From the IMG/VR virus record IMGVR_UViG_643348544_000004: a DNA stretch of 44,988 nt. One strand, written 5' to 3'. A program made the position numbers and the translations under genes. The stretch comes from a virus. Taxonomy: Duplodnaviria; Heunggongvirae; Uroviricota; Caudoviricetes. Position 1 is the stretch's first letter. Each line of letters begins with the position of its first letter. This document shows positions 1 through 20,395 of the stretch, in pieces. The notes under the pieces are model-generated. The model had not been told where the DNA came from. It worked only from the letters and a program-made list of their open reading frames with translations, and made no database searches.

Positions 1-1020
1 CTACTTGCTAACCACGAGCGGCAAATCCAGTGTTGGTGTGATTTTTGTTTTACGATCGTAAATCAACACCTGATTTTCTGTTTTATGCCCGCTGAAAATT
101 TGTTTGTCGCGACTGCTGCCTTCGTAATCTGAGATCCCCTTGGCTTTTATGTCGTGAAAATTGCACCCGAACGGAACGCCAACTTTTTGCTCGGCTGCGC
201 GTTTAGCCTGATTCCACCAGTTATTCAGCGTTTTAGCTATGACTTTCCCGCCTTTGGTTGTATTGATCACATATTCGCATGTACAGGAAGATACATTTCG
301 GGCTAACTGGATCGCTGTACGTAATCGCGGTGACCATTCCTTGATTTGTTTGGTGCCGGTTTTGTTTTGCTCAATGTAGATCCCTTTATCCATAATATCC
401 TGCCATTTCAACTCAAGCACATCACCGAGTCTTGCCGCACAGAGATAGGAAATCTCCATTGCAATGCGTAACTGTGGAATTGCTTCCGCATATATCGCCG
501 CATACTGTTCATCGGTGATGTAAACAGTGCGGGCTTTAAGAGAGAATTTTCTGACTCCTTTGCATGGGTTATTCTTCACATACCCACGCTCATATCCCCA
601 CCCGTATACTCGACTCAGGCTTGCCAGTTCATGATTTGCCTGGGTCTTGCTCTCAAGCCCTCGTTTATCCATGAAAATTCTTACCTGCTCAGTTTTGACA
701 TTATCAGCAAGCACTTTTCCGAATACCATCAGCAACGCCTTCTGATGTTGTCGATAATCTTTTTGGGTTCGGGGGGCCAGTTCTGTAAATGCAGGGGAGT
801 CCATAAACATGTGCCATAATTTAGCTACGGTCATTATGTTGTGGAGTTTTGCTTTTTCCAGTTCATAATTTTGCCAGACTTTAGCTACGCTGGTTTTCCG
901 CACTCTTCCTAGCCCTATACTTCTTGTACTTCCTTCGGGTTTCCACACGTAACTGTAACCATTCGATCTAACCCGCGGTGGCAGTACATTATCTTTTTTA
1001 TTTTTTCTTGGTCTTCCCAT
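1..1020 (-). CDS. int: Phage integrase (tyrosine recombinase family), 339 aa
   Basis: Full-length ORF whose stop codon is at window positions 1-3; lambdoid integrase-like sequence; start overlaps the upstream xis-like ORF as in lambda int-xis. Confidence 0.85.
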   Translation of the reverse strand: MGRPRKNKKDNVLPPRVRSNGYSYVWKPEGSTRSIGLGRVRKTSVAKVWQNYELEKAKLHNIMTVAKLWHMFMDSPAFTELAPRTQKDYRQHQKALLMVFGKVLADNVKTEQVRIFMDKRGLESKTQANHELASLSRVYGWGYERGYVKNNPCKGVRKFSLKARTVYITDEQYAAIYAEAIPQLRIAMEISYLCAARLGDVLELKWQDIMDKGIYIEQNKTGTKQIKEWSPRLRTAIQLARNVSSCTCEYVINTTKGGKVIAKTLNNWWNQAKRAAEQKVGVPFGCNFHDIKAKGISDYEGSSRDKQIFSGHKTENQVLIYDRKTKITPTLDLPLVVSK

Positions 1021-4434: not shown

Positions 4435-4836
4435 CTTTAAAAAGGGCGGCAGAGCAGTCACGGAGTAAAACTGATACCGCCAAACGTCACCAGAAAATTG
4501 ATAACAGAGGGCGTTGCAGCGGGGTTGTCACTTAAGCGTATGGTCAACCTGACAACCCGGTGTCCTCAACGGGGAAGGAATAACCCCGCCATACTTACCG
4601 CCGCGCCATTTCGCGGGTTGCCACAACCGGAAGCGCACGGTCGACGAAAATTTAACGACAGGCTATCTATGAACCAGCTACCTCGCCGTGCGCTTTCGCT
4701 TTATGCCCTGACTTTTCAGGGACATATCCTTTCAGTAAACTGTCAGTGCCGGATGTTCACCCGTGTCCGGCGCACGCACTCCACCTGACCCGTGGAGAAC
4801 TCCTTAATTACCAACCTTAGCTTCGTTGGTTAGCTA

Positions 4837-5055
4837 TTAACGCGGGTATGTAACCATTCTGGCAATGCTTAATGCCGCTGCTTTTTCCAGCCTGGTGATA
4901 TCCTGCTCCAGAGCGGACAGATTTTCAGCCTGCTTAGTCCTGGCTTCATTGGCCCATTTCAGATCCTGCACTGCATTAATTTTCTGGCGCATCCACTCAT
5001 AAAGTTCATCATCGGTATAGTCTGGCGCGATGATGACGGGTTCTCGTTTCTGCAT
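4837..5055 (-). CDS. Hypothetical early protein, 72 aa (Qin YdfC-like by recollection)
   Basis: ORF MQKREPVIIAPDYTDDELYEWMRQKINAVQDLKW...; same strand and operon position as the small genes downstream of dicA in Qin-type prophages. Confidence 0.45.
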   Translation of the reverse strand: MQKREPVIIAPDYTDDELYEWMRQKINAVQDLKWANEARTKQAENLSALEQDITRLEKAAALSIARMVTYPR

Positions 5056-5084
5056 ACTGATTCCTCGCGGTGCTGTTTCGCTTA

Positions 5085-5213
5085 TCAGCCGTTAGATTTT
5101 GCCGAACTGGAAAGCGCCTGTTTAAATTCGTTGAAGCTGAGAGTTTCTTCGCCTTCGGCAAGACCATCGAAGTATTCTTCGTAAGCCTTTTCCATGATTG
5201 TGTCGAAATCCAT
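5085..5213 (-). CDS. Small protein, 42 aa (MDFDTIMEKAYEEYFDGLAEGEETLSFNEFKQALSSSAKSNG), YdfB-like
   Basis: Below the 60-aa track cutoff; found by manual translation of minus strand; start 1 nt after stop of upstream small gene. Confidence 0.4.
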   Translation of the reverse strand: MDFDTIMEKAYEEYFDGLAEGEETLSFNEFKQALSSSAKSNG

Positions 5214-5214
5214 A

Positions 5215-5370
5215 TCACTCACCTGAGTTTCTTTCCAGCCAGCGACGGGCACCATTTTCGGTTTTAAACGTTTTGCTTTTGGTATACGTCATCGCGGTGA
5301 ACGTGCCGTCCTGGTTGGGAAACACGCCGCATACCAGAGATTCGTTGTTGCCAAGATCGATAGTATCCAT
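5215..5370 (-). CDS. Small protein, 51 aa (MDTIDLGNNESLVCGVFPNQDGTFTAMTYTKSKTFKTENGARRWLERNSGE), YdfA-like
   Basis: Internal Met of the 69-aa frame; first gene downstream of dicA on the same strand. Confidence 0.45.
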   Translation of the reverse strand: MDTIDLGNNESLVCGVFPNQDGTFTAMTYTKSKTFKTENGARRWLERNSGE

Positions 5371-5449
5371 GCTGACCTCATTTCCCCTTAACGCCAGGGT
5401 AGCGGAACTGTTTGCTGAGAACACCGTGCGGTGTCTTGATGAGTAGAAT

Positions 5450-5577: not shown

Positions 5578-5985
5578 TTATTTATTTGCGCTTCTTTTGC
5601 GAGCTTTGAGTAGTTCTTCAAAAAGTTTGTTGAAATTCTCAACTCGAGCACGCATCTCTGACAACAGAGCCTTTTGCTCTGACTCAGGCAGTGCGTCGAA
5701 CAGTTGAAGCAACTCTTTTTGATCTTCTGTCAGATTAACTGGCTGATTATCTGGGATCGGTTCGCCTGGTTGCTTATCTTCATCTCCAAAAAGAAGCCAA
5801 GTCGGCGAGCACTGAAGCGCCTGGCTCAGTGCGAATAATCTCTTCCCCGCTGGCTGTGTTTCATCTCTTTCCCATTGAGAAATTGTTACGTGAGCCACTT
5901 TGACCAGCTTACCTAATGCGGCCTGAGACAGTTTTAATTTTTTACGCCTGTATAAGAGGCGAGCACCGAAGGTTTCGTTTTTCAT
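5578..5985 (-). CDS. dicA: DicA-like HTH (XRE-family) repressor, 135 aa
   Basis: Same length as E. coli DicA and strongly similar from memory (LFALSQALQCSPTWLLFGDEDKQP..., EMRARVENFNKLFEELLKARKR); divergent from a dicC-like gene. Confidence 0.85.
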   Translation of the reverse strand: MKNETFGARLLYRRKKLKLSQAALGKLVKVAHVTISQWERDETQPAGKRLFALSQALQCSPTWLLFGDEDKQPGEPIPDNQPVNLTEDQKELLQLFDALPESEQKALLSEMRARVENFNKLFEELLKARKRSANK

Positions 5986-7836: not shown

Positions 7837-8290
7837 ACAGCAAATCCGGCTGGTCTGCCGTCAGTGCATGGACCGCTGCCGGGCGGGTGAAACGTGGCCC
7901 CCGGACCTGGCTGAGTTTGTTGCACTGATTTCGGAGAGTGGGGCAAATCCATTTGGTCTTACGGTGGATGCAGTGATGGAAGAGTACCGGCGCTGGCGCA
8001 ATGAATCCTGGCGATACGACGGGAGTGATAAATACCCGTGGCCACAGCCTGTGCTGTACCACATCTGCCTCGAAATGCGTACCAGAGGGATTGAGCGCCA
8101 GATGACGCAGGGTGAGTTAAAACGACTTGCGGAACGGCAACTGACGAAATGGGCAAAGCATGTTGGTAACGGGATGAGTGTTCCGCCAGTGCGACGACAA
8201 CTGGAAGGGGCGAAACACCCGCAAGGGCCAACGCCAATTGAACGGCTGAAACAGGAATACGAACGCCGGAAGGCAGCTGGTTTTATTTGA
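7625..8290 (+). CDS. Replication protein P-like (helicase loader); start uncertain (7625, 7751 or 7829)
   Basis: C-terminal two-thirds resembles lambda P from memory (PDLAEFVAL..., YPWPQPVLYHICLEM...); start at 7829 would give ATGACTGA overlap with O-like stop. Confidence 0.6.
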   Translation: MQQHQVAPHHGQFRKFGQHVSSGNVKTDLSATETVWKLWELMGEVYSNRWTQKNGAAPSKLWIAQIGAMTEQQIRLVCRQCMDRCRAGETWPPDLAEFVALISESGANPFGLTVDAVMEEYRRWRNESWRYDGSDKYPWPQPVLYHICLEMRTRGIERQMTQGELKRLAERQLTKWAKHVGNGMSVPPVRRQLEGAKHPQGPTPIERLKQEYERRKAAGFI

Positions 8291-8323
8291 ATCTGAGAAA
8301 CGATTTTGTCGGAGGAAATTTTA

Positions 8324-9094
8324 ATGGAAACCGTATTTGACGCACTGAAAGCAATGGGAAAAGCCACATCGGTAGAACTGGCCGCGCGACTTGATATCAG
8401 TCGTGAAGAGGTTCTCAACGAGCTGTGGGAACTCAAAAGAAATGGCGTCGTTGATAAAACTGGTCACACCTGGTTTCTGGCTGGCGAAGGTGAATCCCGG
8501 GTAACCGAAGAGCGGCCAGTAAAATCTGAAGCACAGGATATGCTGACCGGAGAGGTCGAACAAAAAGTTACCGCAGACATGATGATTGAGTTTATCGGTC
8601 AGGATGGTGCTAAAACGTGTGAGGAACTGGCGGGTAAGTTCGGCGTCAGTACTCGCAAGGTTGCCTCCACGCTGGCGGTGGTAACCGCAACGGGGCGGCT
8701 GGCACGCGTTAATCAGAACGGTAAATTTCGTTACTGCATGCCGGGCGATAATTTACCAGCAGAGCCGAAAGCCGCGCTGGTAACGGAAAGTGATGGTAAG
8801 GCCTTTCCTCAGCCAGCAGGTGCTGCGTTACCAGTCCGGGAAGCCGCAACACAGGAAGAAATTAAAACAGAAACTGTGGCGGACATTGTGCAGCCGTTGC
8901 CATCGTTTACCGAAACGCAAGCAGATGAGCTGATTTTTCCGTCCCTTCGCAGGGCAAACCTGGCGCTGCGCAGGGCGAAAAGTGATGTTCAGAAGTGGGA
9001 GCGAGTCTGCGCCGCGCTGCGGGAGCTGAACAAGCACCGGGATATTGTTCGACAGATTACTGATTCTTCCCGCCGTGTTGTATCGGAAAAGTGA
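8324..9094 (+). CDS. Hypothetical phage protein with N-terminal winged-helix-like region, 256 aa
   Basis: GGAGG RBS 8 nt upstream of ATG at 8324; common lambdoid-prophage early protein, function unknown. Confidence 0.5.
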
Positions 9095-9109
9095 TTGCCG
9101 GAGGCGCTT

Positions 9110-9532
9110 ATGGCAAAAGTATTTACACCAGAAGAGCGGGAAAAAATTAAAGGGCAGGTTGTTGAACTCGTACGCCAGAGTGGGCGCGAGACGTTACGAC
9201 AACTGGAAACTAAAACTGGGGAAACAAGATATCTGATGAGCGTTCTGGCCAGAGAGCTGGTTGCCAGTGGCGATGTATACAACTCTGGTTACGGGTTATT
9301 CCCGTCTGAACAGGCGCGTAAGGACTGGCAAAATGCCCGCAAAAAACTCTCAAGGGCAAAGCTGAAGAAACCATCTGTGGTTGATCCGGACCTTATCTGG
9401 CTATTACCTGACGGAGAAATACGTCGCTACGACAGGCGTCAGAACATAATCTGTCGCGAGTGCCGGAAGAGCGAAGTTATGCAGCGCATATTGTCGTTTT
9501 ATCAGGGTAATTTTCAGGAGGTAGCGCAGTGA
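9110..9532 (+). CDS. Hypothetical phage protein, 140 aa
   Basis: GGAGG RBS upstream of ATG 9110; stop overlaps next gene start. Confidence 0.45.
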   Translation: MAKVFTPEEREKIKGQVVELVRQSGRETLRQLETKTGETRYLMSVLARELVASGDVYNSGYGLFPSEQARKDWQNARKKLSRAKLKKPSVVDPDLIWLLPDGEIRRYDRRQNIICRECRKSEVMQRILSFYQGNFQEVAQ

Positions 9533-10017
9533 GTGCACCGGCAACCATTCTTGATATGTGCTGTGGCAGCCGTATGTTCTGGTTCGATAAGAATGACGAC
9601 CGGGCGATATTTAGCGATATCAGAAAAGAAGAGCACACATTGTGTGATGGACGACGCCTGATTATCAGTCCTGACCTGATAGCAGATTTTCGAGCATTAC
9701 CATTTGCAGACGCATCGTTTCCGGTTGTTGTATTCGACCCTCCGCATCTTGAGTGTGTTGGTGATAAAGCCTGGATGGGAAAGAAATATGGACGGTTGAA
9801 TAAAGATACCTGGCGTGATGATTTGCGGCAGGGATTTAAAGAAGCTTTTCGTGTGTTGTGGCCACATGGCGTTCTGATTTTTAAATGGAATGAAACGCAA
9901 ATATCTGTCCGCCAGATATTGGCACTAACCGACGCGAAACCAATCATCAGCCAGCGCACCGGTAAGAACGATAAAACACATTGGATTATTTTTGTGAAGG
10001 AGGCGACCAGTGGGTAA
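9529..10017 (+). CDS. Small putative DNA methyltransferase (SAM-binding ILDMCCGSR motif, DPPH motif), 162 aa, GTG start
   Basis: Motif I-like LDMCCG and motif IV-like FDPPH read in translation; GGAGG RBS; overlaps both neighbours. Confidence 0.5.
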   Translation: MSAPATILDMCCGSRMFWFDKNDDRAIFSDIRKEEHTLCDGRRLIISPDLIADFRALPFADASFPVVVFDPPHLECVGDKAWMGKKYGRLNKDTWRDDLRQGFKEAFRVLWPHGVLIFKWNETQISVRQILALTDAKPIISQRTGKNDKTHWIIFVKEATSG

Positions 10018-10264
10018 ATCAAAATGCCAGGTTTATGGCAACAAGATAGAACCGTGTACGACCCTGGCAAAATCCCTTGAGCATGATGCTGAATACACGA
10101 TGCGAAAAGGTCTGCTGATATACAAAATCTGGAATGAGAGTTTAACTCGCGGTCCTGATTTTGTGATGTTGCGTTCCGGTGAATTTTCTAAATTACCAGT
10201 TCGGGTTTCATTTTGTCCGTTCTGTGGTGAAAGTCTGAAAACGTGGGAGAACAGAAATGAATGA
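10010..10264 (+). CDS. Hypothetical protein with C-terminal CxxC zinc-ribbon-like motif (CPFCG), 84 aa
   Basis: GAAGGAGG RBS before GTG start; overlaps upstream and downstream genes. Confidence 0.4.
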   Translation: MGKSKCQVYGNKIEPCTTLAKSLEHDAEYTMRKGLLIYKIWNESLTRGPDFVMLRSGEFSKLPVRVSFCPFCGESLKTWENRNE

Positions 10265-10568
10265 AATTAAAGAAATACCAGTAGTACGTGATGAATATGG
10301 CTACTGGACGCATCCTGAATATGAAAAATTCTGTGACGGTCGGGAATATATTTCAACGGAAGAGTTTAACGCCTGGATGGAGGAAAATAATCTTCAATAC
10401 GTCCTCTGCTTCAGAGATGAAGGATGTGCTGACCTTGATGCGTGTGATGCTGATATTTCTGCATGGGAACCGGAACGACCAGAGGGCAATGGATGGTTTA
10501 TTGGTTCAATACATGACACCGAAGATGGCCCGGTTTGTGTATGGCTGAGAAATAAGGCCGAAGCATAA
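10257..10568 (+). CDS. Hypothetical phage protein, 103 aa
   Basis: ORF overlapping upstream stop; no recognisable family. Confidence 0.4.
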   Translation: MNEIKEIPVVRDEYGYWTHPEYEKFCDGREYISTEEFNAWMEENNLQYVLCFRDEGCADLDACDADISAWEPERPEGNGWFIGSIHDTEDGPVCVWLRNKAEA

Positions 10569-10696
10569 AGGCTATAAACCGACTAACAACTAAATACTGA
10601 AGATTTAAATCAGAAACGATTTTTATTAAATCCTTAACCGGAGGGATTCCTGCACCCTCAGAACATCAGGAGGCCGTCCGAAAGGGCGGTAGTGAA

Positions 10697-10879
10697 ATGC
10701 GAAAATTCAAAATAATTATTGAAACGGGAATAGCCGGTGGAGATTTCGAGGATGAATTCGAAGTGGATGATGATGCAACACCAGATGAAATACAGGATGA
10801 AGCTAAAGATATTTTCTTTAACTACTGCAATTACTCATACCACGAAATAAAAGACGAAGAGGAAGAACAAAATGGCTGA
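10697..10879 (+). CDS. Small highly acidic protein, 60 aa (about one third D/E)
   Basis: MRKFKIIIETGIAGGDFEDEFEVDDDATPDEIQDEAKD...KDEEEEQNG; charge composition reminiscent of DNA-mimic anti-restriction proteins (inference only). Confidence 0.35.
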   Translation: MRKFKIIIETGIAGGDFEDEFEVDDDATPDEIQDEAKDIFFNYCNYSYHEIKDEEEEQNG

Positions 10880-11048
10880 TTTTGGTTCAACTAAATACAA
10901 CGTCAGTTTTGAAGCATGGCATGAACTGTTAATGGACTATGCAGAGTTACGTGGTGGCAGTGCTGCTGATGCTGAAGCATGGCGTGATGATTATGAAGCA
11001 GGAAAAACTCCGGTCGAAGCATATTGTGATGAGTGGGGCGATGAATGA
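10872..11048 (+). CDS. Small acidic protein, 58 aa (MADFGSTKYNVSFEAWHELLMDYAELRGG...)
   Basis: Below track cutoff; manual translation; overlaps neighbours at both ends. Confidence 0.3.
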   Translation: MADFGSTKYNVSFEAWHELLMDYAELRGGSAADAEAWRDDYEAGKTPVEAYCDEWGDE

Positions 11049-11560
11049 GCGAGATTAATTATCAGGAAGGGCATGAAACGGCAGGGCAGGCAAAAACAGT
11101 GGCATGGCGATATCGCTACGTGAAAAAAGACGTTACAGACTTTCAGGGGAAGCCGTGGGCTGGTGACTGGAAATATGTACCGACAAAAGAGGATTGTAAC
11201 GACAGGCCGAACTATGAAATTCAGGCCTTATTCATCGGCCCGCCAGTCCCGGTGACATCAGAAGGACTGGTTAAAGCCGTGCGCTTTTATGAACAGGTAA
11301 AGCGTGAGAATCCGCCAGTCGAAACAGGAGCATGGAAGGATGCTGTTGACTGGGTGCTCAGAGAGGCCTGCTGCGCTGCCATTCTGGGTAAAGCCGACAA
11401 TCCACCAGCATCCGGCAATCAGGTTAGCGAATTAACAATGTGGGTTAAACGACTGGTCAGTCAACTGAAAAAAGCTCAGCCGGACTGCAAATTACCGGAG
11501 AAGGCGATGGATTACCTGAAACGAAATGGACTGATAAGCGTGGAGGATGTTTTACGATGA
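11045..11560 (+). CDS. Hypothetical phage protein, 171 aa
   Basis: ORF with ATGA overlap to upstream gene; no recognisable family. Confidence 0.45.
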   Translation: MSEINYQEGHETAGQAKTVAWRYRYVKKDVTDFQGKPWAGDWKYVPTKEDCNDRPNYEIQALFIGPPVPVTSEGLVKAVRFYEQVKRENPPVETGAWKDAVDWVLREACCAAILGKADNPPASGNQVSELTMWVKRLVSQLKKAQPDCKLPEKAMDYLKRNGLISVEDVLR

Positions 11561-11767
11561 AAATTTAGACTAAAGAGTTTGTAACGCTATGTAAGTGATT
11601 TTTTCTGGTTTAGATATTTATATGTCCGGCCAAATTGAGGTGTGTTTAAATGTTATTGCACATTGATTGTAGGGGGAATAATGAAAAACGCATTGCAGTT
11701 TTTGTTTGTTGCGTTCTGGTTGTTCGCATCATGTATGCCCATCATCTTCACAGCAAGGTATATGGAA

Positions 11768-11776
11768 AAAATTGAT
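11768..11776. repeat. IS1 target-site duplication, left copy (AAAATTGAT)
   Basis: Identical 9-mer directly abuts both IS1 ends. Confidence 0.85.
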
Positions 11777-11791
11777 GGTAATGACTCCAAC

Positions 11792-12295
11792 TTATTGATA
11801 GTGTTTTATGTTCAGATAATGCCCGATGACTTTGTCATGCAGCTCCACCGATTTTGAGAACGACAGCGACTTCCGTCCCAGCCGTGCCAGGTGCTGCCTC
11901 AGATTCAGGTTATGCCGCTCAATTCGCTGCGTATATCGCTTGCTGATTACGTGCAGCTTTCCCTTCAGGCGGGATTCATACAGCGGCCAGCCATCCGTCA
12001 TCCATATCACCACGTCAAAGGGTGACAGCAGGCTCATAAGACGCCCCAGCGTCGCCATCGTGCGTTCACCGAATACGTGCGCAACAACCGTCTTCCGGAG
12101 CCTGTCATACGCGTAAAACAGCCAGCGCTGGCGCGATTTAGCCCCGACATAGCCCCACTGTTCGTCCATTTCCGCGCAGACGATGACGTCACTGCCCGGC
12201 TGTATGCGCGAGGTTACCGACTGCGGCCTGAGTTTTTTAAGTGACGTAAAATCGTGTTGAGGCCAACGCCCATAATGCGGGCAGTTGCCCGGCAT
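11792..12295 (-). CDS. insB: IS1 InsB (transposase frame; expressed as InsAB' by -1 frameshift), 167 aa
   Basis: Canonical IS1 InsB sequence; overlaps insA 3' end. Confidence 0.9.
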
Positions 12296-12489
12296 CCAAC
12301 GCCATTCATGGCCATATCAATGATTTTCTGGTGCGTACCGGGTTGAGAAGCGGTGTAAGTGAACTGCAGTTGCCATGTTTTACGGCAGTGAGAGCAGAGA
12401 TAGCGCTGATGTCCGGCGGTGCTTTTGCCGTTACGCACCACCCCGTCAGTAGCTGAACAGGAGGGACAGCTGATAGAAACAGAAGCCAC
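12214..12489 (-). CDS. insA: IS1 InsA, 91 aa
   Basis: Sequence [43 protein letters not shown]... is canonical IS1 InsA. Confidence 0.9.
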
Positions 12490-12544
12490 TGGAGCACCTC
12501 AAAAACACCATCATACACTAAATCAGTAAGTTGGCAGCATCACC

Positions 12545-12553
12545 AAAATTGAT
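12545..12553. repeat. IS1 target-site duplication, right copy (AAAATTGAT)
   Basis: Identical 9-mer directly abuts both IS1 ends. Confidence 0.85.
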
Positions 12554-12774
12554 GTTTTGATATTAATGTTTGGACATATAAATGCCCTTTTTTTAGGGGT
12601 GTTCATGGCGGTCATGTGCATTGAATACTGGCGGTAAATACAGCGAACGCCATTGGTTTAGTTGGATATTTACTGTGCCGGACAAAAACGGTTTGCGGGG
12701 AAATCTTAGTTAAGTAGAATAACTGCGGGTGCTTGAGGCTATCTGTCTCAGGCATGAACACCAAAAGGCAGATA

Positions 12775-12846
12775 GAGAAAAGCCCCAGTTAACATTACGC
12801 GTCCTGCAAGACGCTTAACATTAATCTGAGGCCATATCTATGCGAC
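12775..12846 (-). ncRNA. Predicted Sok-like antisense RNA of the hok locus
   Basis: Minus-strand promoter-like -35 TTGACC (12876-12881) and -10 TAATCT (12852-12857) with 18-nt spacer, directing transcription antisense to the hok leader; hairpin plus T-rich tract downstream; prediction only. Confidence 0.3.
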
Positions 12847-12899
12847 ACATAGAGATTAGCCTCTTACGGACCGAAAGGTCAAGGAGAAGCAGGCTATGA
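12840..12899 (+). CDS. Short mok-like leader ORF overlapping hok start (19 codons)
   Basis: ATG at 12840, stop TGA at 12897-12899 overlapping the hok ATG (ATGA); shorter than canonical mok. Confidence 0.25.
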   Translation: MRHIEISLLRTERSRRSRL

Positions 12900-13051
12900 A
12901 GCAGCAAAAGGCGATGTTAATCGCCCTGATCGTCATCTGTTTAACCGTCATAGTGACGGCACTGGTAACGAGGAAAGACCTCTGCGAGGTACGAATCCGA
13001 ACCGGCCAGACGGAGGTCGCTGTCTTCACAGCTTACGAACCTGAGGAGTAA
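12896..13051 (+). CDS. hokD: Hok-family type I toxin (HokD/RelF-like), 51 aa
   Basis: Manual translation MKQQKAMLIALIVICLTVIVTALVTRKDLCEVRIRTGQTEVAVFTAYEPEE matches remembered HokD; below track cutoff. Confidence 0.8.
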   Translation: MKQQKAMLIALIVICLTVIVTALVTRKDLCEVRIRTGQTEVAVFTAYEPEE

Positions 13052-13120
13052 GAGACCCGGCGAGGGAGAAATCCCTCGCCACCTCTGATGTGGCAGGCAT
13101 TCTCAACGCACCCGCACTTA

Positions 13121-13150
13121 ACCCGCTTCGGCGGGTTTTTGTTTTTATTT
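13121..13150 (+). terminator. Rho-independent terminator after hok (ACCCGCTTCGGCGGGTTTTTGTTTTT)
   Basis: GC stem CCGC/GCGG with TTCG loop followed by T-run. Confidence 0.6.
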
Positions 13151-13267
13151 TCAACGCATTTGAAGTTCTGGACGGTGCCGGAATAGAATCAAAAATACTT
13201 AAGTAGCGCGCAGGGATAAGAGGGATGGTCCCTTAAAGGGGAGAGCTAATTATCCGGAAGGATTCTG

Positions 13268-13519
13268 ATGATGAACATCGAAGAACTGCGTAAAATTTTT
13301 TGTGAAGATGGCCTCTATGCTGTGTGCGTTGAAAATGGAAATATTGTTAGTCATTACCGCATTGTGTGTTTGCAAAAAAATGGGGCTGCGTTAATTAATT
13401 TTGTGGATGCCCGAGTGACGGACGGATTTATCTTGCGCGACGGTGAGTTTGTCACTTCATTACAGGTATTGAAAGAGATCGGAATAAAAGCTGGCTTTTC
13501 TGCTTTTTCAGAAGAATAA
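13268..13519 (+). CDS. Hypothetical phage protein, 83 aa
   Basis: ORF with GGAAGG RBS; no recognisable family. Confidence 0.4.
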   Translation: MMNIEELRKIFCEDGLYAVCVENGNIVSHYRIVCLQKNGAALINFVDARVTDGFILRDGEFVTSLQVLKEIGIKAGFSAFSEE

Positions 13520-13585
13520 ACTCATCTACAATCTTGCGCGGGGCTGAACTCCCGCTGAGTAACACCGTGCCACCGGAGAAAACCG

Positions 13586-13864
13586 ATGGCACGCAACGCA
13601 AAATATTACAAACATGATAATTCGACCGTTCTTGCCCACACGCACGAGCGGTATTCTCACGCATTTAAGTCAGACTGGTACCAGCATCCCCCATGCACTG
13701 AAGAACAGGCCGAATGGCTCATTCAGTGTTACCGCAGGCGCGGATGCGAGGTTAAAAAAGCCCTTAGCCTCGACTACCGTCACTGGATAATCTCCGTCAG
13801 GCTTCCTTACTCCGAACGCCCACCGCGTCTGTCCCGCACATTCCAGCAACGCATCTGGAGGTAA
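13586..13864 (+). CDS. Hypothetical phage protein, 92 aa
   Basis: ORF with GGAG RBS; no recognisable family. Confidence 0.4.
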   Translation: MARNAKYYKHDNSTVLAHTHERYSHAFKSDWYQHPPCTEEQAEWLIQCYRRRGCEVKKALSLDYRHWIISVRLPYSERPPRLSRTFQQRIWR

Positions 13865-13865
13865 C

Positions 13866-14921
13866 GTGCGGGTATTACTTCGACCTGTTCTGGTACCGGA
13901 ACTCGGGCTGGTGATCGTTAAGCCGGGCCGTGAATCCATGCCGGTATTCCACAATACCCGGGTACTGGTGGAGCCGGAACCGAAAAGCATGCGTAATCTG
14001 CCGTCCGGGGTCGTTCCTGCCGTTCGCCAGCCGCTGGTGGAAGACAAAACATTGCTGCCGTTTTTCAGTAACGCACGGGTGATTCGTGCTGCTGGTGGTG
14101 CTGGTGCATTGTCTGACTGGCTGTTGCGCCATATTAAATCCTGCCAGTGGCCACACGGCGATTATCATCACAGCGAAACCGTCATTCACCGTTATGGTAC
14201 CGGCGCAATGGTGTTGTGCTGGCACTGCGACAACCAGCTGCGTGACCAGACATCCGAATCACTCGGGCAACTTGCTCACCAAAACCTGTCTGCATGGATG
14301 ATTGACGTCATACGCCATGCAATGAATGGCTCGCAGGAACGGGAATTATCGCTGGCTGAATTATCCTGGTGGGCGGTCCGCAATCAGGTGGCGGACGCGC
14401 TACCGGAAGCGGTATTACGTCGTTCGCTGGGGTTGCGTGCGGAAAAAATCCGCTCAATGTACCGTGAAAGCGACATCGTACCGGGAGAGCAGACCGCCAC
14501 CAGCATACTGAAGCAGCGCACAAAAAATCTTGCGCCGCTGCCTCACGCCCACCAGCAAAACCCGCCACAGGAAAAGACGGTGGTCAGCATTGCCGTTGAT
14601 CCGGAGTCACCGGCTCAGTATCTCCAGCGCCAGAAATCACAACGGGAAGAGATGCCTGTATACACGCGCTGGGTAAAAACGCAGAAATGCATGACGTGTG
14701 GCAATCAGGCAGATGATCCGCATCACATCATTGGTCATGGACTGGGAGGGATGGGAACAAAGGCTGATGATTTGTTTGTTATTCCGCTGTGCCGTAAATG
14801 CCATAGCGAACTACACGCCGGGGTAAAAGATTTTGAAGAAAAACACGGCAGCCAGCTGTTGTTGCTGATTCGTTTTTTAATGCACGCGAGAAATTCGGGT
14901 GTTCTGAAGTGGAAAGCATAA
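13866..14921 (+). CDS. DUF968-type protein with C-terminal HNH-like zinc motif (YdfU-like), 351 aa
   Basis: C-terminus CMTCGNQADDPHHIIGHGLGGMGTKADDLFVIPLCRKCHSELH resembles HNH/DUF968 proteins found before rusA/Q in Qin-type prophages; GTG start after GGAGG. Confidence 0.6.
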   Translation: MRVLLRPVLVPELGLVIVKPGRESMPVFHNTRVLVEPEPKSMRNLPSGVVPAVRQPLVEDKTLLPFFSNARVIRAAGGAGALSDWLLRHIKSCQWPHGDYHHSETVIHRYGTGAMVLCWHCDNQLRDQTSESLGQLAHQNLSAWMIDVIRHAMNGSQERELSLAELSWWAVRNQVADALPEAVLRRSLGLRAEKIRSMYRESDIVPGEQTATSILKQRTKNLAPLPHAHQQNPPQEKTVVSIAVDPESPAQYLQRQKSQREEMPVYTRWVKTQKCMTCGNQADDPHHIIGHGLGGMGTKADDLFVIPLCRKCHSELHAGVKDFEEKHGSQLLLLIRFLMHARNSGVLKWKA

Positions 14922-15302
14922 ATGACCGAGCGCATAGAATTTGTTTTACCTTACCCGCCGACGGTGAACACTTACTGGCGACGCCGTGGCAGCACATATT
15001 TTATCTCGGAGGAGGGAAAGCGTTATCGCCGGGCTGTGGCGCTTATTGTTCGCCAGCAGCGGCTGAAATTAAGCCTGTCCGGAAGGCTGGCGATAAAGGT
15101 GATTGCAGAGCCACCGGATAAGCGTCGTCGCGACCTGGACAATATCCTGAAAGCACCGCTGGATGCGCTGACGCATGCGGGAGTGTTAATGGACGATGAG
15201 CAGTTTGATGAAATCAATATCGTTCGTGGTCAGCCAGTATCTGGTGGACGTATGGGGGTGAAGATTTACCCCATAATGCTTGAAGGGCAGGTCAAAAAAT
15301 GA
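14922..15302 (+). CDS. rusA: RusA Holliday-junction resolvase, 126 aa
   Basis: Pattern ...LPYPPTVNTYW...DKRRRDLDNILKAPLDALTHAGVLMDDEQF matches RusA family from memory. Confidence 0.8.
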   Translation: MTERIEFVLPYPPTVNTYWRRRGSTYFISEEGKRYRRAVALIVRQQRLKLSLSGRLAIKVIAEPPDKRRRDLDNILKAPLDALTHAGVLMDDEQFDEINIVRGQPVSGGRMGVKIYPIMLEGQVKK

Positions 15303-16120
15303 AACTGGAAGATTTACCGAAATACTACTCCCCAAAATCCCCCGGCCTGACTGATGCATCGGCCTCAACGTCAAAAGATGCGCTGAGTATCACTGATGTG
15401 ATGGCCGCGCAGGGCATGACACAGAATCGGGCTGAGATGGGGTTTTCTGCGTTCCTGGGGAAAATGGGCATCAGTATGAATGACAGGGCGCGGGCAACAG
15501 AATTACTGGCAGATTATGCACTCAGTCGGTGCGATCGTGTGGCGGCGTTGAGAAAACTCCCGGCAGAAATAAAACCGGTAGTGATGCGCATTATGGCTTC
15601 GTACGCTTTTGAGGATTATGCCCGCAGCGCAGCGAGTAAAAAGCAGTGCCCTTGTTGCTATGGGGAAAAATTTATTGAAAGCGTAGTTTTTACAAACAAG
15701 GTCCAGTATCCGGATGGTAAGCCGCCGGTATGGGCAAAGTGTACGAAAGGTGTGTATCCGTCTTACTGGGAAGAATGGAAAAAAGTCAGGGAGGTGGTAA
15801 AAGTTGCCTGTCCGGAGTGTGGCGGAAAGGGTGAGGTTTCCACCGCCTGTAAGGATTGCCGTGGGCGTGGTGTCGCCATTCATCGTGAAGAGTCGGTAAA
15901 ACGTGGTATGCCTGTTATCAGAGATTGCCAGCGTTGTGGTGGTCGTGGCTGTGAAAGGCTGCCATCAACGGAGGCATTTAATGCCATATGCAAAGTGACG
16001 AGTGCTATCACGCTTGATACGTGGAAAAAATCAGTGAAACGCTTTTACGATACGTTGGTGGTTCGGTTTGACATTGAAGAGGCATGGGCGGAGCGGCAGT
16101 TAAAGAGGGTAACGCGATAG
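15299..16120 (+). CDS. Late-gene antiterminator Q (phage-82/Quu type), 273 aa
   Basis: Cys-rich zinc-binding region (CPCCYGEK, CPECGGKGE, CKDCRGRG, CQRCGGRG); position immediately upstream of a promoter/terminator pair and the lysis genes. Confidence 0.75.
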   Translation: MKLEDLPKYYSPKSPGLTDASASTSKDALSITDVMAAQGMTQNRAEMGFSAFLGKMGISMNDRARATELLADYALSRCDRVAALRKLPAEIKPVVMRIMASYAFEDYARSAASKKQCPCCYGEKFIESVVFTNKVQYPDGKPPVWAKCTKGVYPSYWEEWKKVREVVKVACPECGGKGEVSTACKDCRGRGVAIHREESVKRGMPVIRDCQRCGGRGCERLPSTEAFNAICKVTSAITLDTWKKSVKRFYDTLVVRFDIEEAWAERQLKRVTR

Positions 16121-16694: not shown

Positions 16695-17744
16695 ATGCTT
16701 AATACTGTAAAAATATCCAGTTGTGAGTTAATCAACGCCGACTGCCTGGAATTTATCCGGTCGTTACCCGAAAATTCTGTTGACCTGATAGTCACGGACC
16801 CGCCGTACTTTAAAGTGAAGCCTGAGGGCTGGGATAACCAGTGGAAGGGCGACGATGATTACCTGAAGTGGCTGGACCAGTGTCTGGCGCAGTTCTGGCG
16901 GGTGCTGAAACCTGCCGGAAGTCTTTACCTGTTCTGTGGTCATCGCCTGGCATCTGATATCGAAATCATGATGCGTGAACGCTTCAGTGTGCTGAACCAT
17001 ATTATCTGGGCGAAGCCGTCCGGACGCTGGAACGGATGCAACAAGGAAAGCCTGCGGGCGTATTTCCCCGCCACAGAGCGCATTCTGTTCGCGGAACATT
17101 ATCAGGGGCCGTATCGTCCGAAAGATGCCGGGTATGCGGCGAAGGGCAGTGCACTGAAACAGCATGTGATAGCCCCGCTGATTTCTTACTTTCGTGATGC
17201 GCGCGCGGCCCTGGGGATAACGGCAAAACAGATTGCAGATGCCACAGGAAAGAAAAACATGGTGTCGCACTGGTTCAGTGCCAGTCAGTGGCAGCTACCG
17301 AACGAAAGCGATTATCTGAAATTACAGTCGCTGTTTGCCCGGGTGGCAGAAGAGAAACATCAGCGCGGTGAACTGGAAAAGCCCCACCACCAGCTGGTGG
17401 ATACGTATACGTCACTGAACCGGCAGTATGTGGAGCTGCAGAGTGAATATAAGCATCTGCGGCGGTATTTTGGTGTGACGGCGCAGGTGCCGTACACGGA
17501 TGTGTGGACACATAAACCGGTGCAGTTCTATCCCGGGAAACATCCGTGCGAAAAACCGGCAGAAATGCTGCAGCAGATAATCAGCGCAAGCAGTCGTCCG
17601 GGTGACCTGGTTGCAGATTTTTTTATGGGCTCAGGTTCAACGGTAAAAGCTGCACTGGCGCTCGGGCGTCGTGCGATTGGCGTTGAACTGGAGACCGGAC
17701 GTTTTGAGCAGACAGTCAGGGAAGTTCAGGATTTAATCGTTTGA
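16695..17744 (+). CDS. Orphan DNA methyltransferase (N6-adenine/N4-cytosine class, DPPY motif), 349 aa
   Basis: VTDPPYF catalytic motif and FxGxG-type SAM motif (DFFMGSGST) read in translation; no adjacent restriction endonuclease gene. Confidence 0.8.
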   Translation: MLNTVKISSCELINADCLEFIRSLPENSVDLIVTDPPYFKVKPEGWDNQWKGDDDYLKWLDQCLAQFWRVLKPAGSLYLFCGHRLASDIEIMMRERFSVLNHIIWAKPSGRWNGCNKESLRAYFPATERILFAEHYQGPYRPKDAGYAAKGSALKQHVIAPLISYFRDARAALGITAKQIADATGKKNMVSHWFSASQWQLPNESDYLKLQSLFARVAEEKHQRGELEKPHHQLVDTYTSLNRQYVELQSEYKHLRRYFGVTAQVPYTDVWTHKPVQFYPGKHPCEKPAEMLQQIISASSRPGDLVADFFMGSGSTVKAALALGRRAIGVELETGRFEQTVREVQDLIV

Positions 17745-17793: not shown

Positions 17794-17869
17794 GGCCCTT
17801 TAGCTCAGTGGTGAGAGCGAGCGACTCATAATCGCCAGGTCGCTGGTTCAAATCCAGCAAGGGCCACCA
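17794..17869 (+). tRNA. ileZ: tRNA with CAT anticodon, most likely tRNA-Ile2 (lysidine; ileX/ileZ-like)
   Basis: Cloverleaf folded by hand: acceptor GGCCCTT/AAGGGCC, anticodon loop CTCATAA, T-loop TTCAAAT, 3' CCA; close to remembered E. coli ileX. Confidence 0.75.
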
Positions 17870-17876
17870 TCACATA

Positions 17877-17953
17877 CCGCCATTAGCTCATCAGGAAAGA
17901 GCGCCAGCCTTCGAAGCTGGCTGCGCGGGGTTCAAGTCCCCGATGGCGGTCCA
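17877..17953 (+). tRNA. argN: tRNA-Arg (anticodon TCG)
   Basis: Acceptor CCGCCAT/ATGGCGG, anticodon loop CTTCGAA, T-arm GGGGTTCAAGTCCCC, 3' CCA; folded by hand. Confidence 0.65.
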
Positions 17954-17966
17954 TTATCTGCATCAT

Positions 17967-18043
17967 GCGTTGTTAGCTCAGCCGGACAGAGCAATTGCCT
18001 TCTAAGCAATCGGTCACTGGTTCGAATCCAGTACAACGCGCCA
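17967..18043 (+). tRNA. argO: tRNA-Arg (anticodon TCT)
   Basis: Acceptor GCGTTGT/ACAACGC, anticodon loop CTTCTAA, T-loop TTCGAAT, 3' CCA; folded by hand. Confidence 0.75.
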
Positions 18044-18532: not shown

Positions 18533-20395
18533 ATGACATTTAAACACTACGATGTGGTCAGGGCGGTGTCGCCGTCAGACCTTGCTGATGCACTTGCTCA
18601 AAAAATTCGTGAAGGATGGCAACCATACGGCGGGCCGTTTTCTTCGTATACGGATGATGGCGCAGCACTTATTCAGGCGATTGTCGCAGAAGGTGATGTG
18701 GTCGTCAGTGGTGCAACTGAGCCGGAGTGGTACTACGTCATCGTACTGGCCGGGCAGTCTAATGCCATGGCTTACGGTGAAGGGCTTCCGCTTCCGGATT
18801 CATACGATGCGCCCCATCCGCGCATTAAGCAACTGGCCCGTCGTAACACAGTGACTCCCGGTGGTGAAGTATGCGTATTTAACGACATCATTCCTGCTGA
18901 CCATTGTCTGCATGATGTTCAGGATATGAGTACGATTAACCATCCCCGGGCTGACCTGAGCAAAGGGCAGTACGGCTGTGTCGGACAGGGCTTACATATT
19001 GCCAAAAAACTGCTTCCGTATATCCCTAATAATGCGGGGATCCTGCTGGTACCATGCTGTCGTGGTGGTTCGGCATTCACCCAGGGCACGGAGGGGACAT
19101 TCAGCGAGTCCACGGGGGCCAGTCAGGATTCGGCTCGCTGGGGAGTGGGTAAGCCGTTATATCAGGATCTGCTTTTCCGCACGAAGGCAGCATTGCAGAA
19201 AAACCCGAAAAACGTTTTGCTGGCGATATGCTGGATGCAGGGGGAATTCGATATGAAGAATGCCAGTTACGCCCAGCAGCCAGCAGCATTTCTTGCAATG
19301 GTACAGCAGTTCCGTGCTGACCTTGCCGGGCTGGCGGCGCAGTGTCACGGTGGAAGTCCGGCATCAGTCCCCTGGATTTGTGGCGACACGACATACGCGT
19401 GGAAACAAGAACACGGTACACAATATGAAGTGGTATATGGTGCATATAAAGGTAAAGAATCCCAGCAGATTTATTTTGTTCCCTTTATGACCGATGGTAG
19501 CGGAGTTAATACACCGACAAACAACCCGTCAGAAGATCCTGATATTGCCGGGTCTGGTTATTACGGTTCGGCATCCCGAACGAACAAAAACTGGGTATCA
19601 TCAAATCGCCCGACGCATTTCAGCTCATGGGCGCGTCGTGGCATTATTCCCGATCGTATGGCAACTGCTATTCTGAACGTAGCCGGTCGCACCTTAGCCT
19701 TCATTAGTGGTAAGGCACCGGAAATCAAACCCTCGCCCGGCGGCGACACGCCATCGGGGCCGTCTGAAGATGCATCCGTACGCACAATCTCCCTGTTGCC
19801 GACAGCCGGAGATGCTGCTGCGCAGGGCTGGAGCATTAAGAATGGCGGAATTCAGTTGTCAGATGGTGTATTTAAGATCACCAAGCAGAGCAATAAAGCC
19901 TGGTCCCTGACGCGCCCGGTGGATGACGCAGTCTCCCTGCTGACACGGGGTGGCAGACTGAGCTGTAAGTTTCGACTGTCAGGCGCACTGACCAACAACC
20001 AGTTCGGTCTGGGAATTTATCTGTATACCGATGTAGCGTTACCTGACGTCGTGGCGATGACCGGGACTGGTAACCCGTTCCTGATGTCGTTCTTCACCCA
20101 GACCACAGACGGCAAACTGAATCTGATGCATCACAAGAAAGCAGGAAACACAAAGTTGGGCGAGTTCGGGAATTACAGTAACGACTGGCAGACGCTGGAG
20201 CTGGTGTTCACCGCCGGCAGTGCCACGGTTACTCCGAAACTGAATGGAGTGGCTGGCCCGGCATTCCAGGTCATAAAAGACAGTCTGACAGTGGGACTAA
20301 ATGCACTGACGCTGACGGATATTACCAAAAATGCAACGTATGGCGTTGAGATAGAAAGTCTGGTGCTGGAGATAAATGCACCGGCATCATCATAA
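18533..20395 (+). CDS. Prophage NanS-p-like sialate O-acetylesterase (N-terminal DUF1737-like + SGNH/SASA esterase + C-terminal domain), 620 aa
   Basis: GQSNAMAYG motif typical of sialate O-acetylesterases; position between tRNAs and holin as in Stx-type lambdoid phages. Confidence 0.7.

Follow-up and report, generated by a model that had tools for sequence, protein, structure and literature searches.

A recent transposition of IS1 into the early region of a prophage of Escherichia coli 55989 has, in our judgment, quite likely split a real gene for a small membrane protein and left the neighboring hok toxin locus unaffected. An element of the IS1A type jumped into a lambdoid prophage that is complete and Stx-phage-like, landing in its nin region, producing the usual 9-bp duplication in the most AT-rich stretch of a spacer and dividing a 59-codon open reading frame (ORF) between its two predicted transmembrane helices. 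Most probably, the ORF is a true phage gene of narrow distribution, which would encode a small two-helix inner membrane protein and form a module with hok. The insertion presumably inactivates it, leaving at most the first helix fused to an IS-encoded tail. The hok/sok locus is structurally untouched, and its expression is probably unaffected. The most likely effect of the insertion is that one dispensable accessory gene was knocked out. The features of the window, by which we mean the whole stretch of 44,988 nucleotides that was analyzed, are listed in Table 1.

Table 1. Features of the window and insertions found in or next to the ORF. Positions are those of the window unless marked ref; reference coordinates are those of the reconstructed spacer, in which the ORF occupies 121-300.
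Feature	Position	Strand	Remarks
cI-like repressor	5578-5985	-	
ORF 5′ part, codons 1-32	11681-11776	+	Predicted first transmembrane helix and loop
Left target-site duplication AAAATTGAT	11768-11776		Exact 9-bp repeat
IS1	11777-12544	-	768 bp; Pfam, NCBIfam, frameshift motif, end sequences
insB′ frame, 167-aa ORF	11792-12295	-	Pfam DDE_Tnp_IS1 2.3e-78; NCBIfam transpos_IS1
insA, 91 aa	12214-12489	-	Pfam Zn_ribbon_InsA and HTH_Tnp_IS1
TTAAAAAAC, programmed -1 frameshift motif (A6C)	12232-12240	-	Element position 305 counted from IRL
Terminator-like hairpin inside IS1	12404-12418	+	
Promoter-like site CTGCCA-16-TATGAT	12510-12537	-	IS1 end adjoining hok; direction into IS, away from hok
Right target-site duplication AAAATTGAT	12545-12553		Exact 9-bp repeat
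ORF 3′ part, codons 33-59 and stop	12554-12637	+	Predicted second transmembrane helix
hok mRNA leader/sok region, complete	12727-12898	+	Rfam RF01794, 106.7 bits, model 1-157, untruncated
hokD-type toxin gene, 51 aa, intact	12896-13051	+	Pfam HOK_GEF 1.2e-23
Terminator-like stem-loop after hok	13120-13137	+	
rem-like gene	13268-13519		
Q	15299-16120	+	
DNA methylase	16695-17744		
tRNA-Met/Arg/Arg	17794-18043		
nanS-p-like esterase	18533-20395		
IS1, window (55989)	Duplication at ref 208-216		
IS1, strain MB57	Duplication at ref 214-222		Same orientation as window
IS1, three SCPM strains and one viral contig	Duplication at ref 186-194		Same orientation as window
IS1, P0040	After codon 22		Opposite orientation
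IS629, L303	After about ORF nt 90		
ISEc52-type IS3-family element, L304	After about ORF nt 85		
IS2-like end, L302	After about ORF nt 73		
IS3-family element of 1,264 bp, L028 1694-2956	10-13 nt past ORF stop		

The window contained one copy of IS1, with the transposase encoded on the minus strand. The left end of the element began with GGTAATGACTCC, and the right end finished with GGCAGCATCACC, which reads GGTGATGCTGCC inward. The imperfect inverted repeats, GGTAATGACTCCAACTTATTGAT and GGTGATGCTGCCAACTTACTGAT, agreed at about 18 of the first 23 positions, as counted from the match line of their alignment. The InsAB′ transposase is presumably produced via a -1 frameshift, and we take the promoter-like site at 12510-12537 to be the promoter of IS1 itself. 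The domain matches of insA and insB′ and the frameshift motif suggest an intact element with the potential for activity. It showed 99.7-99.9% identity to copies whose transposase is named 'IS1-like element IS1A family' by PGAP. Length and ends, insA and insB′ with the A6C motif, and a 9-bp duplication with a corresponding empty site were all those of the IS1 family. In its 768-bp length, imperfect inverted repeats, insA/insB′ frames, A6C motif, 9-bp duplication, and AT-rich target segment, the insertion resembled those of IS1 (IS1A-type isoform) in E. coli and Shigella, and nothing material differed. It is a textbook case of transposition, and the genome concerned has been published.

The first-pass annotation had described a perfect 9-bp target duplication, a relatively recent transposition, and a position about 350 bp upstream of hok. 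All three descriptions held: the coordinates and sequences of the duplication were exact, near-identical prophages carry the empty site, and the distance from the end of the element to the hok ATG at 12896 was 351 nt. Read in frame, AAAATTGAT corresponds to codons K30-I31-D32 of the ORF. The same nonamer also occurs at 4494 and 6068 in the window; therefore, the weight of the repeat lies in its position and not in its rarity. The sequence of E. coli 55989 (CU928145.2) was 100% identical to positions 8045-14560 of the window (6,516 bp) and carried the same IS1. The loci L209 and L215 contained the same prophage with an empty site, with 1 mismatch in flanks of about 6.5 kb and about 5.5 kb. The uninterrupted site was contiguous, with a single copy of the nonamer and no IS, in approximately 1,555 of 5,426 complete E. 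coli genomes. The IS1 junction of the window, GGAAAAAATTGATGGTAATGACTCC, was absent from all 5,426 genomes, a collection without 55989 itself. Because prophages differing by 1 mismatch in about 6.5 kb carry the empty site, the insertion must be of recent date, and among the genomes covered it was private to the 55989 lineage. The spacer that separates hok/sok from an upstream phage gene of 171 aa had a GC content of 0.37, compared to 0.52 for the window, and IS1 landed in its most AT-rich stretch (60 bp, 0.28 GC).

Positions 1-20395 of the window consisted of a Stx-phage-like backbone with an integrase, and no stx gene was present in the gap of about 490 bp between the tRNAs and the esterase gene. 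The plus-strand genes followed the order of O/P, nin genes, the ORF interrupted by IS1, hok, rem, DUF968, RusA, and Q, and a cI-like repressor gene preceded O/P. Given the position of IS1 between O/P and Q, a polar effect on transcription of the early operon is a more plausible side effect of the insertion than a change in hok. That polarity, and not loss of the ORF, is the main effect, with transcripts from the early promoter ending within the element, lowering Q (as well as rem, DUF968, and RusA) and impairing prophage induction, is conceivable, though on balance we doubt it. IS1 is polar in both orientations, and in this prophage it separates the replication genes from Q, all of which are on the plus strand, with its transposase genes antisense and a terminator-like hairpin on the plus strand within the element. 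However, antitermination normally operates on the early transcripts of lambdoid phages; it is classically a suppressor of the polarity of insertion sequences and may act as one here, and the sequence gave no sign of an otherwise defective prophage. A promoter-like site, TTGAAG-18-TAGAAT, was located at 13160-13189, between the terminator of hok and the rem-like gene. It could be a promoter of rem itself, independent of read-through across IS1.

The reading that we prefer, namely the disruption of a gene for a small membrane protein, concerns the two ORF parts on either side of the element. When 11681-11776 was joined to 12554-12637, the result was 59 codons followed by a stop, with the product MKNALQFLFVAFWLFASCMPIIFTARYMEKIDVLILMFGHINALFLGVFMAVMCIEYWR. 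The ATG was preceded by a Shine-Dalgarno (SD)-like GGGGGA, which was GGAGGA in some alleles. The product had two hydropathy maxima and a GRAVY of 1.20, and AlphaFold2 predicted helices at residues 2-24 and 30-58 with a pLDDT of 73. Both analyses point to two hydrophobic helices of membrane-spanning length. The ORF would be translated, and its product would be located in the membrane. In the interrupted form, the 5′ part continues into IS1 up to position 11857, which makes a fusion ORF of 58 aa; no record of the fusion product was found in either a 71-aa or the 58-aa form.

The in-frame hydrophobic ORF of 59 codons with a good ribosome-binding site, which the first-pass annotation had proposed on removal of the element, was recovered as such, with its SD-like site and as a contiguous frame in the genomes carrying the empty site. 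The comparison with uninterrupted homologous loci, on which that proposal had been made to depend, also came out in its favor: the ORF was intact in 276 of the 278 full-length copies, and a paralogue with the same 59 codons was found. The ORF was present in 1,566 of the 5,426 complete E. coli genomes (approximately 29%), and all of these copies, referred to as lineage A, were at least 95% identical in DNA. No PGAP annotation covered the ORF in any of 60 RefSeq genomes sampled across the ranking, and other gene callers recognized it at just 3 of 10 places. Neither the 59-aa form nor a 72-aa form had a match in Pfam, PHROGs, NCBIfam, or PADLOC. A BFVD fold search of the 59-aa product gave no match with E < 0.4, a search that is uninformative for a bare helical hairpin, and the peptide string was absent from full-text-searchable papers. 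Judged by its sequence, the ORF lies outside every described family.

Other contents of the same DNA segment were also considered. A structured RNA in place of the ORF was rejected, with no Rfam match on either strand and a fold z-score of the spacer (-2.06) that was not compelling. The strand opposite the ORF holds a 63-codon ORF, and a minus-strand coding sequence across the region was rejected as well, as it contained stops in a second, divergent lineage of the locus (lineage B) and showed an amino acid identity of only 0.31. A minus-strand coding sequence is annotated in the phage records PV340562 ('hypothetical protein') and ON470612 ('hornerin') (L002 and L003, 3031-3282, minus strand), which is probably a mis-annotation.

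A further explanation is that the ORF is a chance or decaying frame in an AT- and T-rich non-coding spacer, so that IS1 would lie in dispensable intergenic DNA. We consider this unlikely. It would be in keeping with the lack of PGAP annotation and of any match in the family libraries. In addition, when spacers with this composition were simulated, 20% contained an ATG-initiated ORF of at least 59 codons, and hydrophobic residues are the default product of a T-rich strand. The comparison with lineage B, however, argues against it. This lineage (P0037 and P0042) was found by an exhaustive phmmer search, and its 59-aa product, MRKIL[VM]YLCISIWIVISCVPIILTSEYLTEAS[IR]MALMFGHANALCIGVFISIIYIECWR, aligned with that of lineage A ungapped at an amino acid identity of about 44-45%. 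The residues common to both lineages were W13, S17-C18, P20-I-I, T24, Y27, LMFGH, NAL, GVF, IE, and the terminal WR.

The ORF DNAs of lineages A and B were 60% identical, and this 40% divergence had accumulated without an indel and with the positions of start and stop conserved, whereas the flanks could be aligned only with indels. Identities at codon positions 1, 2, and 3 were 0.58, 0.72, and 0.50, respectively, the second position being the most conserved and the third the least. The values of pN and pS were 0.33 and 0.71, respectively, and dN/dS was approximately 0.2, with synonymous sites saturated. Frame +0 alone was open in both lineages, and its amino acid identity (0.45) was far above that of the five other frames (0.25-0.31). 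In column-shuffle tests, P was 0.004 for amino acid identity and 0.0005 for the lack of a stop in either sequence. Purine-rich SD-like runs preceded the ATG in both lineages. Frame, length, start, and stop were thus retained with dN well below dS. Neither a profile search with the alignment of lineages A and B nor a metagenome scan revealed a third lineage, and with only two lineages, both of which are confined to E. coli and Shigella, the coding test amounts to one deep comparison with saturated synonymous sites. These results suggest that the ORF is probably a real phage gene, which would encode a small membrane protein of two helices and has been under long-term selection.

Lineage B was found in 1,044 of the 5,426 complete E. 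coli genomes (approximately 19%), and none of the 7 full-length matches listed had a PGAP annotation of the ORF. Its locus (L220, 4001-4300; L221, about 5000-5400) lay at the ttcA (Rac-type) attachment site within the remains of a decayed prophage, where the ORF was directly followed by a degraded 3′ half of hok with an approximately 80% match to annotated hokD. Since the order of the ORF and hok is the same in both lineages, the arrangement is older than the split between A and B. No K-12 strain was among the 60 sampled matches of lineage A, and in two K-12-derived strains the match to the lineage B query was confined to hokD; K-12 is probably devoid of the ORF.

Variation within the lineages gave a different picture. 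The 278 full-length copies of lineage A, drawn from viral, genome, and metagenome collections, had 12 non-synonymous variable sites and 1 synonymous one. The pooled within-lineage polymorphism of 15 non-synonymous to 1 synonymous fitted neutrality (P = 0.16) and did not fit an omega of 0.2 (P = 8e-5). It also differed from that of the flanking genes in the same loci (103 non-synonymous to 80 synonymous; P = 0.001). Frameshift alleles were found at a T7 run in L163, P0020, P0023, and P0025, with the last 13 or so codons shifted. The L163 allele (about 9595-9775) has T6 in place of T7 and reads ...INALF before a stop, and those of P0020, P0023, and P0025, which came from several independent assemblies, end in ...FFRGVHGGHVH. 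Purifying selection on the ORF was therefore not visible in the present-day variation of E. coli, given this ratio and the frameshift alleles. The ORF evolves without detectable constraint in E. coli lysogens, and the gene seems dispensable for the lysogen, as amino acid changes, frameshifts, and IS insertions have built up in it with no selection apparent. The same ratio and the persistence of frameshifted and IS-disrupted alleles also count in favor of a chance or decaying frame.

The only moderately divergent copy of lineage A was that of E. coli ECMA0423 (CP178302.1; L086, 1486-1680), which was 86.6% identical over the spacer. Its ORF had three 1-nt deletions and a 3-nt insertion that broke the frame, and its hok was intact. 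The broken frame could be genuine decay or an assembly error, and we gave it little weight because the T7 run contained one of the deletions and the assembly may be prone to errors.

Disruption of the ORF by insertion sequences was not limited to 55989 (Table 1). A segment of about 40 bp has been struck independently by IS1, at least 4 times, and by several IS3-family elements. IS1 insertions in the same orientation as that of the window occupied three sites within 36 bp, and one was in the opposite orientation. Other E. coli strains with an independent IS1 in the ORF were represented by L087 (2720-3487), L088 (2692-3459), L103, and the protein P0040. In L302, L303, and L304, the junctions were at 2501 plus about 73-90, and the insertion end in L302 is what we take to be IS2. 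The insertions lay within or close to the 60 bp of the spacer that are richest in AT, consistent with the classical preference of IS1 for AT-rich targets. An integration host factor (IHF) site as the cause of the hot spot was rejected: one match with 1 mismatch was found, and 0.8 are expected by chance. As protein-based detection is blind to junctions before about codon 20, so that early junctions are missed, no statistical significance is claimed for the clustering. This landing zone for multiple insertion sequences is a convenient natural example of regional target preference.

The neighboring locus comprises both a toxin ORF and a conserved leader/sok RNA, and the equivalent gene in L001 is named hokD by PGAP. 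The first-pass annotation had also proposed that the insertion may alter transcription of the hok region and may inactivate a toxin-like or lysis-related peptide, and neither suggestion was supported by the results. The leader/sok region is complete and begins 183 bp beyond the end of IS1 (12544), the only promoter-like site at this end of the element, a minus-strand one, is directed away from hok, and at the junction on the hok side the promoter scan detected no hybrid promoter reading outward. An effect of IS1 on hok expression is therefore unlikely, as far as can be judged from the DNA. Scans with Pfam and PHROGs gave no match of the ORF to a holin or lysis peptide, and the location of the ORF, which is in the early nin region and precedes Q, is outside the lysis cassette. 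As to a type I toxin, neither HOK_GEF nor any other toxin family matched the product, and no Rfam family matched the RNA over the ORF; NCBIfam and PADLOC likewise gave no match, and no significant fold match was obtained. It is very unlikely that IS1 changes hok expression, by read-out or by separation from an upstream control, and that the ORF is a toxin or lysis peptide, even though the ends of IS1 are able to form hybrid promoters, the element is near the hok ATG, and the ORF precedes hok in two lineages, given the whole leader/sok, the lack of an outward promoter site, the lack of a toxin, holin, or defense family match, and the location outside the lysis cassette.

In comparison with hok/sok loci (HokD/RelF-type) of lambdoid prophages in general, the ORF is directly upstream in both lineages, and the two seem to travel together. 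However, the ORF shares no homology with Hok or Mok, and hok loci are far more widespread: Stx phages have hok without the ORF, and a 498-nt query, of which the 3′ third was the hok leader, had matches in 4,536 genomes, mostly over the leader part. Enrichment of hok in prophages has been described, and the passages concerned make no mention of a small ORF upstream of it (10.1101/2025.08.07.668861). The ORF is unannotated in RefSeq, and its coding signature and position next to hokD make it worth considering for annotation as a small protein and for tests of any link to Hok. The 59-aa protein might be a functional partner of hok/sok, for example one that modulates the membrane, provides immunity, or acts as a second effector, and might have co-evolved with hok in a cassette of two genes. 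The AT-rich loop stretch would then be a structural hot spot for several unrelated IS families, whose insertions would switch the partner off time and again in nature, an idea that we put forward as very speculative and improbable.

Small phage inner membrane accessory proteins with two transmembrane helices include T4 Imm and superinfection exclusion proteins of the moron type, e.g., HK97 gp15. The product of the ORF resembles them in its length of about 60 aa, its predicted two-helix hairpin, and its origin in an accessory region of a temperate phage. No sequence similarity or significant fold similarity to these proteins was found, and the likeness is one of analogy, not of membership.

Insertion sequences beside hok have a precedent in K-12, where Pedersen and Gerdes reportedly described in 1999 IS150 or IS186 just downstream of hokA, hokC, and hokE. 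Those insertions are said to lie just 3′ of the hok frame and to disrupt the fold-back element at the 3′ end of the mRNA. The arrangement is similar in that an insertion sequence is next to hok. In the present prophage, however, IS1 lies upstream of the start of the hok mRNA, and the hok/sok unit is whole.

The mok-like frame of the locus (about 12840-12899), MRHIEISLLRTERSRRSRL, is no longer than 19 codons, and its stop codon TGA shares an ATGA with the start codon of hok. This 19-codon form was found in 103 loci, and a few loci (L278 and L086) had a mok of 67-68 codons that overlapped hok.
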